Part shown: piece by piece, positions 23,405 through 59,324 of the stretch
Layout: every line of letters begins with the position of its first letter
Numbering within the stretch: position 1 is the first letter of the stretch
From: Candidatus Poribacteria bacterium
GTDB taxonomy: Bacteria > Poribacteria > WGA-4E > WGA-3G
Assembly (NCBI GenBank): GCA_963665235.2
Contig: CAXXLX010000001.1
Coordinates: 480,001-544,000 of the forward strand
Length of the DNA stretch: 64,000 bases
Direction of reading: 5' to 3'
Made by a program: the position numbers and the translations under genes
The notes under the pieces: model-generated
Database searches by the model: none
What the model was told of the DNA's origin: nothing
What the model saw: the letters and a program-made list of their open reading frames with translations, nothing else

Positions 23405-23467
23405 AAATTTTACGCTTTTAAAAAAAGGTTGACAACTGTCGAAATTTAAGATATGATGTCATTGTAA

Positions 23468-23951
23468 TACCATTTCTAATTGAAAATGTCTCTTTATTGT
23501 AGCATAAACTTCCAGTTTGTGCCTTGTAGCATAAACTTCCAGTTTGTGCCTTGTAGCATAAACTTCCAGTTTGTGCCTTGTAGCATAAACTTCCCTTGTA
23601 GCATAAACTTCCAGTTTGTGCCTTGTAGCATAAACTTCCAGTTTGTGCCTTGTAGCATAAACTTCCAGTTTGTGCCTTGTAGCATAAACTTCCAGTTTGT
23701 GCCTTGTAGCATAAACTTCCAGTTTGTGCCTTGTAGCATAAACTTCCAGTTTGTGCCTTGTAGCATAAACTTCCAGTTTGTGCCTTGTAGCATAAACAGT
23801 TTGTGCCTTGTAGCATAAACTTCCAGTTTGTGCCTTGTAGCATAAACTTCCAGTTTGTGCGTTATTGTAGCATAAACTTTTAGTTTGGGTCTTCCGTTCT
23901 CCGTTTCATTTCTAACAACCGGTAATGATAGAATAATTAATAAAAATGGTA
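23468..23951. mobile_element. TACC MITE with about 15 tandem 27-bp REP units
   Basis: TAA|TACCATTT...AAATGGTA|TAA. Confidence 0.88.
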
Positions 23952-23991
23952 TAAGTAAACTGTAAGAGTATGTCAGAATTTTAAAAAAAAG

Positions 23992-24020
23992 TTGACAATT
24001 TTCGAAATTTAAGATATAAT
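23992..24020 (+). promoter_or_regulatory. Consensus sigma70 promoter (related copies at about 23429 and 26796)
   Basis: TTGACA-17-TATAAT. Confidence 0.8.
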
Positions 24021-24050
24021 GTCCTTGTAAATCATACTTTTATTTGGGGT

Positions 24051-24552
24051 TTGACAATGAAAAACCGACAAGCACAATCGCTATTGAGAAAAGAACGTAG
24101 TAGATGCCTTCGAGCTAGGCAGGATTGTCCGCGCAGAATACCTATCGGTTTCTACATTAACTTTCCGTTAAACCCCCCCCTTAATAAATTTTCTTATTTG
24201 TTAATTATTTTACGTCGTATTGCAGGATTTAAAATCTGCGATATTTCGCGCCCGCACGTACTTCGTCCACGACGAAGTGTACAGTTGCGGGCTTTTGTTG
24301 TTGCATCGGAGTGTACTTCCGTTCCGCATCTGTACCGTGCGTGACAGCGGAATATAATAGGACAGTACACATCGAACAAAACAAATTTAAGGTCTCTGTC
24401 CATTAAACTGTCTGATATAACAGTGTTTAAGGAACTTGATAGTTCACGTAATACTGTTCAATTAGATAACCGAGACCTAATTTACGACACCTTGGAACCG
24501 AGGGAAATCTGTAAATCCCTTTGTGTACCAAAACTATAAGGAGAAATTCTAA
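24051..24552 (+). other. Conserved ~500-nt leader or decayed ORF, copy 1
   Basis: Aligns along its length with 26889-27384; in-frame TGA at 24342. Confidence 0.6.
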
Positions 24553-25002
24553 GTCAATAACCCCCCGCTAAAGCGTGGGGGCTTGTCCAAGATGGTAGCC
24601 ACCCTGTAACTTGGGTGAGGGCAACTTATTGACTACCGTAATATATCGCGATATCGAGGCGTGGCAGCCTCAACGTATCCATTAAAACGCTATAGTCAAG
24701 TGGTAGTTTCTATAGCTAGGTCCTGCTCCCCAAGGGTTGGGTTCATGCGGGTATCGTGATCGGGATGGGGCAATATACACTCCGAAAGGAGACTTACCTG
24801 TTTTCTCAAAGATACCGTGTCAGGTCAAGTAAACAGAAAGTGCGAGTTCTGTTGAACGAAGCAGCACAGTTTGCGAGGAGCGCCTACGGGAAACTTGTGG
24901 CGAAAAAACAACCCGACTCCCCTTTGGGGGAAATCTAAAACGAATAGGAGCGGTGTTTCCTCCCCCGCATAAATGCTGGGGGTTTCCACACCGAATATTT
25001 TG
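24553..25002 (+). mobile_element. Non-autonomous IscB-type (HEARO/omega-RNA) IS200/IS605 element
   Basis: GTCAATAACCCCCCGCTAAAGCGTGGGGGCTTG...TTATTGAC start; terminal hairpin CCCCCGCATAAATGCTGGGGG; followed by ATGA; absent at the paralogous site 27384/27385. Confidence 0.82.
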
Positions 25003-25698
25003 ATGAAAATTATGTTAGTATTAGCAGGATTTATGTTGATGATAGCCTTTGTTATTATCAGCACAAGCGACATGGTATGGGCGGAGGAAGTCTTGGGAAC
25101 AGGAACCGGCTCACTGATAGGCGGCGACCTAACCGACCCAGAAGACGATGGTCAACCTGAAACAGATGACGGTTACAACGCTGTTTTCACAGCCAACGAA
25201 GAACCCGGTTTCGGGGGCGGGGAATCTGCGTTTAACGTCTTCGATAACCGCCTTGGCCCCGGCAATGACAAATGGTGCTGCGGACGTGGCGGCGGCATTC
25301 CGGACGAAGGTCTACACGTGACAGCTGAATTTGACGAGCCGTACGCATTGACACACTTCACCGTATCCTCAGCGAACGATGTTCCTAATAGGGACCCTAC
25401 AGAATGGGAAATTCAGGGGTCGAACGACGGCAAAGAATTCACGACCATCTTTTCTCACAAGGGGGATAGCTTCTGGGATCAGCGACTGCAAGTCGTCCTT
25501 TTTAAGGCTGGAAAAGATTACGACGTTCAAAAAATCGGGTACAAGTTTTTCCGGCATGTTACTTTTAACACCGCAGCGAACCCGGCTGGAGCGTACTTTC
25601 AAATTGGCGAAATAGAGTACTTCGGCGATGATAGTTATCCCGTAGACCCTAGAACCAAGCTCACAACCACATGGGGAAGCATCAAAAACGCCCGATAA
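25003..25698 (+). CDS. Secreted discoidin/F5-8-like beta-sandwich protein with TTTWG tail
   Basis: Signal peptide, FNVFDN..KWCC, SANDVPNRDPTEWEIQGSNDG, FQIGEIEYF. Confidence 0.75.
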   Translation: MKIMLVLAGFMLMIAFVIISTSDMVWAEEVLGTGTGSLIGGDLTDPEDDGQPETDDGYNAVFTANEEPGFGGGESAFNVFDNRLGPGNDKWCCGRGGGIPDEGLHVTAEFDEPYALTHFTVSSANDVPNRDPTEWEIQGSNDGKEFTTIFSHKGDSFWDQRLQVVLFKAGKDYDVQKIGYKFFRHVTFNTAANPAGAYFQIGEIEYFGDDSYPVDPRTKLTTTWGSIKNAR

Positions 25699-26698: not shown

Positions 26699-26888
26699 AT
26701 ATCCACTTGAAACCGTGAGGGTGAAAACTTTTTTCAAACTCGCGTTTTTGATAAATAAATCGTCCGGCTGAAAATTTGACGATTTCAAAAAAAGGTTGAC
26801 AACTGCCGAAATTTAAGATATAATGTCTTTGTAAATTGTATGAGCGGAAAACTTTGTTACCGCATATCTCATTTTTCATATCCGGGGT

Positions 26889-27384
26889 TTGACAATGCAA
26901 AACCGACAAGCGACATCACTATCCAGAAATGAACGCAATAGATGCCTTCGAGCTAGGCAGGATTGTCCGCGCAGGGTGCCTATTGATTTTAGCGTATCGT
27001 TAAACCCCCCCCTTAATAAATTTTCTTACTCGTTAATTATTTTACGTATCGCAGGATTTAAAATCTGTGATATTTCGCGCCCGCACGTCCTTACGTCCTT
27101 CGTCTATCACGAAGTACTTGCGGGCTTTTGTTATTGCATTGGAGCGTACTTCTGTTCCGCATCCGTACCATGCGTGCCAGCGGGATATAATAGGACAGTA
27201 CGCCTCGAACGAAACAAATCCAAGGTCTCTGTCCATTAAACTGTCTGATATAACAGTGTTTAAGAAACTTGATGGTTCACGTAATACTGCTCAAGTAGGT
27301 AACCGAGACCTAATTTACGACACTCTGGAACCGAGGGGAATCTGTAAATCCCTTCGTGTACCAAAACTATAAGGAGAAATCTAA
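26889..27384 (+). other. Conserved ~500-nt leader or decayed ORF, copy 2
   Basis: Homologous to 24051-24552; frameshifted relative to copy 1. Confidence 0.6.
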
Positions 27385-28230
27385 ATGAATTTCAAAGCTA
27401 TAAAAGTGGTTTGTATCCTCAGCCTCTTACTTACCTCTATTTGGTACGTAAACGCGGTTGATGCACAACTTGATGAAAACACAGTTGCTGGCATGTGGAC
27501 CTTTGAAGAAGGTGAAGGCACAGTCGTCAAAGACCTCTCCGGTAATGGAACCGATGGAGCGTTTGTTGGTAGCTTAGAATGGGTCGATGCCAAATTCGGT
27601 GGTGGGTTAAAGTTTGATGGCACAAACACTTGGATTAAACTCGGAACAAAAGGTGATGCGGATAGTTTAGCGGCTTTGCAAGTTAAGGATTTAGCAGGGT
27701 TCTCTGTCCACGCCTGGGTCTATTCGGAAGTAGCTCCAACTGGCAAATGCGTTGTTTGGAAAGGCCTTGGGTGTTCAACCTGGTCACAGTTCCGTCTGGG
27801 AACAGGTTCTCACGAAAACGGGGACAACAGTACAAAGGCATCGTTTCACATCCGAGCTGGAAACGGCGGTGCTAGGCTTGAAGTTCTCGGTGATGACCTG
27901 CCTGCTGGAGAATGGCTGCATCTCGTTGGCACCTGGGACGGAACCAAAAATCACATCTACGTCAACGGCGAACTCCAAGCATCCGCAGATGCATCACAAC
28001 CCCCTTGGGCATCCCCTGAAGAGGTCTACATCGGGGCCGACCCTGGCTGCGGTAAGCGGGGACAGTGGAACGGTATCATGGACGAAGTCGCTATCTTTAA
28101 CGTAGCACTCTCAGCCGAGCAGGTTGCAGAGCTCGGGCAAGGTCTTGACGCTGCTTTAGGAAGAGCCACACCGGTTGACCCCATCGGGAAAACAGCAACA
28201 ACCTGGGGCAAACTCAAAAATAGGAAGTAA
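27385..28230 (+). CDS. Secreted LamG/concanavalin-like domain protein with TTWG tail
   Basis: WTFEEGEG..DLSGNG, KFGGGLKFDG, WLHLVGTWDG..YVNG, GIMDEVAIFN. Confidence 0.88.
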   Translation: MNFKAIKVVCILSLLLTSIWYVNAVDAQLDENTVAGMWTFEEGEGTVVKDLSGNGTDGAFVGSLEWVDAKFGGGLKFDGTNTWIKLGTKGDADSLAALQVKDLAGFSVHAWVYSEVAPTGKCVVWKGLGCSTWSQFRLGTGSHENGDNSTKASFHIRAGNGGARLEVLGDDLPAGEWLHLVGTWDGTKNHIYVNGELQASADASQPPWASPEEVYIGADPGCGKRGQWNGIMDEVAIFNVALSAEQVAELGQGLDAALGRATPVDPIGKTATTWGKLKNRK

Positions 28231-52480: not shown

Positions 52481-52873
52481 ATGAGTAAAGATGAAACCGT
52501 CTCTCGGATAAAAAAACGGCGGCTTGAACTAAGCATGACACAGACCCAGTTAGCGAAAATCGCAAACTTAACACCTGCAGCCATCTCACAGTTCGAGTCT
52601 GGGACCCGCAAACCCTCTTTTAACACGCTCGCTGGCCTGTCCGAGGCCCTAAAGGTAACAACAGATTATCTTCTCGGTAAAGAGGAATTGCGATACGATG
52701 ACCTTCTTGCGGACCCGAAGGTTAGTCTCATGTTTAGAGGCATGATGGAATTCACAGAGCGCGATAAGGAAACCCTCTATGAGTTCTATAAATTCCTCAA
52801 GACACAAGCGGATGATGCTACATCAGATGCCACATCAGATGCTACATCAAGTGAAGGTTCATCGGGTCAATAA
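52481..52873 (+). CDS. XRE-family HTH regulator
   Basis: RIKKRRLELSMTQTQLA..ISQFESGTRKP..TTDYLLG. Confidence 0.92.
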   Translation: MSKDETVSRIKKRRLELSMTQTQLAKIANLTPAAISQFESGTRKPSFNTLAGLSEALKVTTDYLLGKEELRYDDLLADPKVSLMFRGMMEFTERDKETLYEFYKFLKTQADDATSDATSDATSSEGSSGQ

Positions 52874-53432
52874 CCCCCAGCTAAAGCATGGGGGCTTGTC
52901 CCTGATGTCCGCCAAGGCTATCACAGGGACGAGGGTAACTTGTTGACTACCGTAATATATCGCAGATGCTGGACGTGGCAGTCCAAAGTATGGTTATCTA
53001 AAAAGGTGGCTTGTTTGTGGTAAAAGCAAGTTGCTGAAGGGTGCTCCCCAAGCCTTAACCCACTACGCTTATGTGATCGGGATGGGGCAATATATACCCG
53101 TGTAAGCGGAGAGCCCGAGAGGGTCCTTACCTGCTTTCTCAAAGAGACCGTGTCAGGTCGGCTCGGAGATGGTGACAGCACTGAAGAGCAGGCTGTTTGC
53201 CTGAATACTGAAAAGAAGCAGCACACTCGGAGAGGATCGCCCACGGGATTGTGGCGAAAAAACAACCCGAAGGAGGAAAACGAATGAACTTCGTTCATTT
53301 GTTTTCCCTCCCCCCCTTTGGGGTAATCTAAAACCGAAAAAGAGGCGGTGTTAGGAGGAAAGCTAATGAACTTCGTTCATTCGTTTTCCCTCCCCCGCAT
53401 AAATGCTAGGGGTCTCCACACCGAATATTTTG
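52866..53432 (+). mobile_element. Second non-autonomous IscB-type omega-RNA element
   Basis: Same GTCAATAACCCCC start and CCACACCGAATATTTTG end as 24553-25002; followed by ATGA. Confidence 0.82.
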
Positions 53433-58918: not shown

Positions 58919-59324
58919 TCTTTTCATCCTCAATATACTTTTTGACAACTTCTAAGGATACACACCCAACCGACGATATGAATTTGGAACGCGTCCACAG
59001 AGAGGGTAAACCGGATTTTAGGTGTGGAAATCCCTCACGCAAGACTTTAGAGGTGAAACCTTTTAGCATCCAAACTGTCCGAGTGACTGGCACTTTCGGA
59101 TTGGTTTCTATGATAAGATGCACAGGGTCTTCCATCACCTCACTGGCACACACCTTAAAATCTAAATCGGTTTGTTTGGAGCATATCAGATGATGCAACC
59201 GTTCTTGTATAGGTTCGGTTAAAACCTTGCGCCGATACTTCGGACACCAGATAACAGGATACTGACAACTATAGACAAGGTTCGTATCAGAATACCAACT
59301 CTTTTCTGGGTTCTTAATAAACAT
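58911..59324 (-). CDS. tnpA: IS200-type Y1 transposase with degenerate HUH motif
   Basis: WCPKYRRKVL, DPVHL instead of DHVHL, LKG, LWTRS, KKYIE. Confidence 0.88.
   Translation of the reverse strand: MFIKNPEKSWYSDTNLVYSCQYPVIWCPKYRRKVLTEPIQERLHHLICSKQTDLDFKVCASEVMEDPVHLIIETNPKVPVTRTVWMLKGFTSKVLREGFPHLKSGLPSLWTRSKFISSVGCVSLEVVKKYIEDEKNV

Follow-up and report, generated by a model that had tools for sequence, protein, structure and literature searches.

A probable non-autonomous, protein-free element with an IsrB-type omega RNA between ribosome-binding site and start codon in Candidatus Poribacteria

In a 64,000-nucleotide stretch of a Candidatus Poribacteria genome (contig CAXXLX010000001.1; hereafter the window), the intact open reading frame (ORF) of a 231-residue protein with an F5/8 type C domain (25003..25698, + strand; PF00754, E 1.6e-7) is parted from its own ribosome-binding site, as the motif AAGGAG at 24538-24543 now lies 450 nt off the ATG. 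What fills this gap, how it could have come to lie there and what it might do at such a place are the questions raised by the locus. Direct reading of the sequence gives a 450-bp insertion at window 24553-25002, on the + strand, between TAAGGAGAAATTCTAA and ATGA. The host flank ACTATAAGGAGAAATTCTAA (24533-24552) has its last base at 24552, the element starts with GTCAATAACCCCCC (in a longer reading, GTCAATAACCCCCCGCTAAAGCGTGGGGG) at 24553 and finishes with AATATTTTG (longer reading, CCACACCGAATATTTTG) at 25002, and host sequence resumes as ATGAAAATT at 25003. An initial annotation of this DNA had proposed an IscB omega RNA element spanning 24553-25006 that separates the downstream gene from its ribosome-binding site; the insertion and the separation are both confirmed, but the true end is at 25002 and the ATGA at 25003-25006 belongs to the flank. 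We consider it probable that 24553-25002 is a non-autonomous, protein-free element of the IS200/IS605 superfamily, similar to the elements known as PATEs and composed of an IsrB-type omega RNA, a 3' domain and an ATGA-side hairpin.

The insertion was accompanied by no target duplication, and at a paralogous site the flanks TCTAA and ATGA are contiguous. An unoccupied version of the same locus was found in one contig each of X7 (an RNA library) and X6 (probably DNA), which are runs of one study. Both contigs join 24547 to 25003 via 8 other letters and skip the element; being ~96 % like the window, they come from a related strain.

The omega RNA scaffold and the element ends

The 5' part of the element (24553..24791, + strand) is assigned to the IsrB-type omega RNA scaffolds by a match to the HEARO family, by alignment with related RNAs and by covariation, and it terminates in a closing hairpin, CTCC-GAAA-GGAG, at 24780-24791. 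Under relaxed thresholds HEARO (RF02033) matches 24553-24778 along model positions 1-211, from the first base of the element, and the resemblance includes the 5' stem GUCAAUAA/UUAUUGAC, the CCCC-loop-GGGG hairpin, the order of helices and the alignment of the whole model. In the genome (5.3 Mb, 4 contigs) 16 such sub-threshold matches were counted, and parts of the element give 47 matches by BLAST. Unlike RNAs that reach the HEARO gathering score of 83, the related copies score 22-38 bits; at gathering level no Rfam family matches anywhere in the 64-kb window, and no HEARO is found in the genome. Ten of the matching RNAs lie directly upstream of ORFs of 342-368 aa whose only domain is RRXRR, and homology extends to the RNAs that precede about 20 isrB genes. 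Together with the covariation described below, the whole-model alignment and these homologues upstream of isrB bear out the proposal of a protein-free omega RNA element. RF02033 itself is described without downstream structural elements in the available text of Meers 2023 (bioRxiv 10.1101/2023.03.14.532601).

Covariation was examined in an alignment of ten protein-free copies (seven from this genome and three from related genomes) with 15 short-scaffold omega RNAs, 13 of them confirmed to precede an RRXRR ORF. RNAalifold returned 40 pairs, 29 of which show compensatory changes. When the 5' stem and an extra hairpin were added by hand and the pairs recounted, standard pairs occupied 92.5 % of cells compared to 32-43 % with partners slid by 1-3 columns, and both sides had changed in 39 of 55 pairs. 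None of 500 shuffles attained the observed values; since the aligned RNAs are related, however, this count overstates the case and the slid controls make the fairer comparison. Covariation thus strongly supports a conserved omega RNA fold. A single-sequence fold of 24533-25006 is no better than shuffles (z -1.4), and the structural claim therefore rests on covariation.

Other identities for the inserted RNA were tried and set aside. Matches to STAXI (E 2.4) and HgcC (E 2.9) inside the element are taken as chance, since 12 related loci lack them at the corresponding position; one HgcC match at E 2.6 was seen in related locus L073. No group I intron or other ribozyme family was detected at E up to 10, either in the window copy or in 12 related loci, and an IStron or self-splicing intron in the 5' untranslated region (UTR) was accordingly rejected.

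The boundaries are those of a dispersed family. On the omega RNA side, the 5' flanks of 16 ends are mutually unrelated, which along with published IscB/IsrB biology fits the earlier suggestion that the guide derives from the 5' flank. The opposite end, searched with six end variants as queries, is present in 45 copies in the genome, and ATGA follows in 37 of them, from which ATGA at 25003..25006 (+ strand), here also the host start codon plus one base, is taken as the transposon/target-adjacent motif (TAM). This role of ATGA, also proposed initially, is in line with the TAM NTGA published for IsrB (Hirano 2022, PMC9581776, available text). The window copy is hence one insertion of a family present in many copies, whose ends are conserved, whose 5' flanks vary and whose 3' flank is ATGA.

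The ATGA-side end (24944..25002, + strand) is defined by the 45 genome copies, a covarying outer stem, a predicted fold and homology to the left end (LE) of IS605 elements. It consists of AGGAG (24946-24950), the outer stem CGGTGT/ACACCG (24951-56 / 24988-93), an inner hairpin (24962-24982) and a 9-nt spacer (24994-25002). Subterminal hairpins occur at both ends of the element (24562-24581 and 24962-24982) and terminal inverted repeats are absent. The element contains no protein gene: IsrB is recognisable only by its last ~8 codons, which lie in the end, and the copies share no reading frame. According to the available text of Meers 2023 (bioRxiv 10.1101/2023.03.14.532601), the omega RNA scaffold of IscB comes from the right end (RE) of the transposon with the guide just outside, TnpA and the nuclease recognise the same adjacent motif, and production of the omega RNA needs transcription from outside. 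Named accordingly, the RE of our element is the GTCAATAA end, which holds the scaffold, the LE is the ATGA-side end, and the motif reads TCAT on the transposed strand.

The protein-free lineage and its 3' domain

Two features distinguish the protein-free copies. An extra stem-loop, GCTATAG...CTATAGC (24689..24716, + strand), is present in 10/10 protein-free and 0/15 IsrB-type omega RNAs; it takes up ~42 nt of the alignment (columns 135-176), with compensatory changes in five of its seven pairs. Further downstream, following the hairpin CTCC-GAAA-GGAG that in isrB elements overlaps the isrB ribosome-binding site, a conserved structured 3' RNA domain of ~150 nt (24793..24940, + strand) is confined to protein-free elements. 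Its conservation spans genera, with compensatory changes in 18 of 28 pairs by RNAalifold and in 17 of 28 pairs of a hand-drawn six-helix model, in which 86 % of cells are paired as compared to 28-48 % in slid controls. Helices 3, 4 and 5 (88-94 % of cells paired, at least two pairs in each changed on both sides) make up a putative H-type pseudoknot, CGCC-UA-CGGG...UUGU-GGCG-AAAAA-ACAA-CCCG, at 24881..24915 (+ strand).

The 3' domain matches no Rfam family in the window copy or in 12 related loci. Neither tblastn nor sensitive blastn found any isrB DNA or protein similarity in it, and the view that it is a decayed isrB remnant was rejected, as only the last ~8 codons in the element end and spurious short matches were recovered. 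A small ORF was likewise dismissed, the longest stop-free frame varying among 14 copies and non-triplet indels being present. On the opposite strand, helix 6 of the domain forms a terminator-like hairpin with a T run (window 24915-24935, - strand), which could stop antisense transcription that enters the element.

A covariance model of the 3' domain, R1, detects eight copies here. Of 101 genomes from the taxonomic family, 40 contain the domain, with as many as 31 copies in a single genome. No IsrB match lies within about 1.5 kb in any of 30 related loci that were fetched, and the 13 protein-free loci whose two ends could be found by pattern measure 434-607 bp. Scanning 185,579 species representatives for the exact motif yielded 71 matches, 54 of them in records titled Candidatus Poribacteria. 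Among the 17 matches from elsewhere, all taken as chance, 16 fail R1 and one scores 19.7 bits, whereas nine of nine poribacterial controls score 109-144 bits. From these sequence comparisons, the protein-free copies are a separate lineage in Candidatus Poribacteria.

The window holds a second protein-free omega RNA element (52866-53432, 567 bp), 67 % identical to the first and enlarged by two nested palindromic inserts of ~40-50 nt. Similar small palindromic inserts lie between omega RNA and isrB ATG in four full-length elements.

Elements of this general kind have been described before. Standalone omega RNAs can work with IscB (Altae-Tran 2021 as cited in Hirano 2022, PMC9581776), and PATEs often encode omega RNAs that are used in trans (Meers 2023, bioRxiv 10.1101/2023.03.14.532601). 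Going by the available text of these sources, the window element shares with them its transposon ends, the lack of a protein gene, a nuclease made elsewhere and a TnpA that acts in trans; it differs in that its RNA is of IsrB type with an extra stem-loop, and that a pseudoknotted domain of ~150 nt, conserved across genera of one family, stands in place of the ORF. With standalone omega RNAs and PATEs already known, the bare finding is not new: an IsrB-type omega RNA element without a protein counts as known biology, met here in another group of hosts, and what makes it a distinct variant is its 3' domain, its additional stem-loop and its niche at the start codon. The available text of PMC9581776 and bioRxiv 10.1101/2023.03.14.532601 describes no comparable 3' domain. 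An RNA-only OMEGA element lineage present in multiple genomes, with an added domain that has no counterpart beside a nuclease gene, is relevant to the question of how independent of their proteins omega RNAs can become in evolution.

Nuclease and transposase in trans

Many of the element matches in the genome pair into units of 1.26-1.41 kb, in which an ORF of 342-368 aa begins 211 nt after the GTCAATAA end. Pfam assigns only RRXRR (PF14239) to these ORFs. Among solved structures IsrB comes closest (8dmb, E 1.4e-25, residues 3-299), whereas IscB chains match at residues 4-119 only. The genome has 23 RRXRR matches, all in frames of 403 aa or less. On examination of 22 RRXRR ORFs, 17 were found to be full length with a shared C-terminus, three have altered ends and two are truncated, and about 17-20 IsrB proteins are apparently intact as judged from sequence. 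The resident IsrB falls into three subfamilies, and the RNA end occurs in two variants, GTCAATAACCCCC and GTAAAGATCACCC. In the alignment to DtIsrB the VDPG, ED and H..D motifs, which we take to be the RuvC catalytic motifs, are kept, and no inactivated IsrB was noticed there. A cognate nuclease, supposed in the initial annotation to be IscB, is thus present in the genome, but domain content, closest structure and frame length identify the family as IsrB, an HNH-less nickase.

The published IsrB works with a ~300-nt omega RNA, has the TAM NTGA and is a nickase, and DtIsrB nicks ATGA targets (Hirano 2022, PMC9581776). As far as the available text of that source goes, the DtIsrB system (8dmb) and the present one agree in a protein of ~350 aa with RRXRR/PLMP-RuvC and without HNH, in an omega RNA at the element end upstream of the ORF, in a TAM that includes ATGA, and in individual stem-loops that vary among orthologues. 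They differ in that the isrB-linked omega RNAs here, at about 190 nt up to the ORF, are shorter than ~300 nt and that the window copy has no ORF and is known from sequence alone.

The distribution of the 3' domain is also informative. An RRXRR gene is present in 34 of the 40 genomes with the domain and in 31 of the 61 without, in all 23 genomes with at least two domain copies and in 11 of 17 with a single match; these counts assume the same 101 genomes in both searches, and the genomes are kin and not an independent test. The co-occurrence fits a multiplication that depends on IsrB.

As regards mobilisation, the genome has 13 matches to the Y1 transposase (Y1_Tnp). Three IS605 tnpA-tnpB copies (C1:32727, C2:339792 and C1:3153209 on the genome's contigs) encode a TnpA of 137 aa and a TnpB of 368 aa, and their LE and RE hairpins are homologous to both ends of the IsrB and the protein-free elements, with the patterns CTTCGGTGT..CCCCC-loop-GGGGG..ACACCG for LE and AAGCCCCC-loop-GGGGGT.TAT..AC for RE. 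Unlike the elements considered here, which have IsrB or RNA only, they carry both TnpA and TnpB. Judging from these shared ends, we infer that the three copies are the most likely source of the transposase that mobilises the element. A single transposase may act on TnpB-, IsrB- and RNA-only elements, although their adjacent motifs differ. A Y1 transposase gene of IS200 type also occurs within the window (58926-59276, - strand), and another lies outside it (C1:545730-546080).

Published IscB, IsrB and TnpA biology suggests how these components might operate together. TnpA supplied in trans would have inserted the single-stranded element beside TCAT, which is ATGA on the strand shown. A promoter at 23992-24020 would transcribe the leader of the host gene, and the RNA would carry the last ~16-20 nt of this leader as guide, followed by the scaffold. 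After excision, IsrB encoded elsewhere would, together with the RNA, nick the empty donor joint (...GAAATTCTAA + ATGA) and so favour re-copying of the element.

The start-codon niche and competing explanations

The position of the window copy is typical for the family. Among the 37 ATGA-flanked ends, the ATG opens an ORF of at least 100 aa in 23, as compared to 6907 of all 39577 ATGA sites in the genome (17.5 %). For paired elements in this genome the figure is 18 of 28, and in 12 of the 28 the ORF, intact in each case, is combined with a Shine-Dalgarno-like motif counted 4-16 nt before the RNA end. Only 1537 of the 39577 ATGA sites (3.9 %) have both ORF and motif, as do 762 of 7637 (10.0 %; binomial P 6e-6) in a crude non-coding set of ATGA sites not interior to ORFs of at least 150 aa. 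Protein-free elements with distinct flanks in other genomes behave similarly (long ORF in 20 of 31, long ORF with motif in 12 of 31). The gap between Shine-Dalgarno motif and ATG is therefore the commonest context of the family. We infer that this niche follows from a need for co-directional transcription from outside, from purging of insertions within genes and from the start codon being the commonest ATGA in a 5' UTR; since ATGA is a start codon plus A and the RNA needs outside transcription in its own direction, elements would be retained mostly before start codons. The overlap of ATGA with the start codon and the need for outside transcription yield a simple rule, open to test, on the places in which these elements accumulate, and the rule predicts dozens of genes per genome that carry inserts of 0.45-1.4 kb between Shine-Dalgarno motif and ATG and are still intact.

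At the window locus, transcription could come from a promoter-like site, TTGACA-17-TATAAT (23992..24020, + strand), which agrees with the consensus at 12 of 12 positions, is one of three copies of a 68-nt repeat and lies ~530 nt upstream of the element; it would transcribe leader, guide, omega RNA and gene. The long 5' leader of the host gene (24021..24552, + strand) was recognised by similarity search of the genome, in which it is paralogous to window 26782-27384, and by RNA-library contigs: Logan contigs of the RNA-library runs X7, X8 and X9 cover 24055-24547 with 90-99 % likeness, contigs in an RNA library being no proof of transcription. The last part of the leader, 24533..24552 (+ strand), is on published IscB/IsrB biology the would-be 20-nt guide, and it includes the host Shine-Dalgarno motif AAGGAG.

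Several observations weigh against the reading preferred here, that of an omega RNA element mobilised in trans and partnered by IsrB. The HEARO match expected in the initial annotation exists but, at 29.4 bits (E 6e-4 in a 1.1-kb search), falls short of the gathering score of 83. The genome yielded no TnpA whose left end has TCAT as its flank, the three IS605 copies being flanked by TTAT. None of the isrB-linked omega RNAs, as aligned, has the extra stem-loop or the 3' domain, and an RRXRR gene was not found in six of the 40 genomes that carry this domain. Within the genome, the closest intact protein-free copy shares 81 % identity with the window copy and a 5'-truncated one 92 %, which gives no sign of recent amplification, and the RNA-library contigs stem from a strain without the insertion and so are silent on the junction of flank and element (24552/24553). 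Some of these facts would suit an inert relic, namely an old immobile insertion with an idle RNA whose structure reflects past selection on the family; the window copy has no close intact sibling, and the six genomes without an RRXRR gene hold single copies, so orphan copies can persist. Such a relic is nevertheless improbable, given that the window copy retains all the columns that do not vary among the 25 omega RNAs of the alignment, scores 149 bits with R1, has both ends intact and lies downstream of a consensus promoter. A different explanation, put forward initially, concerned the guide. The site at 27365..27388 (+ strand), before a LamG-domain gene, reads AACTATAAGGAGAAATCTAA|ATGA, carries no element and equals the 5' flank minus one T, from which it had been proposed that a nuclease acting in trans is guided to bind or cut there, or that the missing T is an escape mutation. 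The near-match to 27365-27384 is real and more than chance, with ATGA after both sequences, but the whole upstream region is duplicated and the 20-nt match needs no separate cause. A promoter and leader of 603 nt (C1:506782-507384, or window 26782-27384) are 81.4 % identical over 617 aligned columns, rising to 91 % in the last 268 nt; the genome has no further copy of the upstream region, and this one includes a copy of the consensus promoter. The last 46 nt of the two leaders differ by one substitution and the T indel, and since the leaders diverge by about 9-19 % over their whole length, a single indel within 20 nt is expected, leaving nothing for an escape mutation to explain. Without gaps, guide and paralogous site share only five contiguous TAM-proximal matches, which makes targeting unlikely. 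Moreover, the genes 3' of the two sites are non-homologous (F5/8 type C and LamG), so the element could not reach that site through homing by recombination. The activity published for IsrB is that of a nickase (PMC9581776, available text), and with no inactivated form seen in the DtIsrB alignment a binding-only nuclease is not indicated. There is a single paralog, and no orthologous leader that could polarise the indel in the T run was found in the 60 related genomes searched. Guidance to the paralogous site is, in our estimate, very improbable in either form.

With the guide-based claim falling away, the interest of the locus resides in the 3' domain, the start-codon niche and a possible rebuilding of the ribosome-binding site, by which the ATGA-side end would have evolved to supply AAGGAG, a stem of ~42 nt, 9 nt and the ATG, so that the gene is expressed and the element is either tolerated or regulatory. 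The order at this end is AGGAG, CGGTGT, inner hairpin, ACACCG, AATATTTTG and ATG. Among 38 protein-free ends examined, a crude rule found the stem in 36, and GGAG or GAGG stands directly 5' of it in 26 of these 36, in a region that is non-coding there; the consensus at the protein-free ATGA-side ends is AAAAAGGAGC. The outer stem covaries among copies (CGGATT/AATCCG, CAGTGT/ACACTG, CGGGAT/ATCCCG and others), and in the predicted fold it is closed with GGAG unpaired. The folded end could accordingly place a Shine-Dalgarno motif in space 9 nt from the host ATG. A comparable arrangement is that of phage T4 genes 38 and 25, whose ribosome-binding sites are split and spanned by a hairpin: the Shine-Dalgarno motif is far from the AUG in sequence and is brought near by a stable stem; the window case differs in being a prediction and in lying inside a mobile-element end. 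The over-representation of insertions between Shine-Dalgarno motif and ATG, with intact ORFs, is also consistent with such rebuilding. On the other hand, AGGAGC in isrB elements belongs to the C-terminal codons of IsrB (..YRSGVSSPC) and may simply have been inherited, the ends are under a further constraint as substrates of TnpA, a need for transcription from outside together with purging inside genes can account for the enrichment, and the z-score of the fold is modest, at -1.8. We regard a rebuilt ribosome-binding site as a tentative possibility that is somewhat doubtful; if true, it would amount to a mobile element built to be translationally neutral. Equally tentative is the wider proposal of a poribacterial RNA-only IsrB-type lineage specialised for translation-initiation regions, in which landing at ATGA, a transcript from the host promoter, and the pseudoknot and ribosome-binding-site end would sustain translation or impose control by RNA or IsrB.

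The leaders themselves merit a few remarks. Promoter and leader of ~520 nt (window 23963-24552 and 26782-27384) precede two non-homologous pairs of secreted lectin-like genes, with F5/8 type C domains at 25003 and 25933 and LamG domains at 27385 and 28391. A long conserved leader before both gene pairs suggests shared regulation; no Rfam family matches it. A segment of the leader (window ~24157-24310) recurs at five other places in the genome with 72-84 % identity and may be another small repeat element. Further upstream, a unit of 27 nt (TTGTAGCATAAACTTCCAGTTTGTGCC) is repeated about 16 times head to tail (window 23470-23905), directly after a promoter-like site (23429-23457) that agrees with the consensus at 11 of 12 positions and is itself a copy of the promoter that precedes the two leaders.

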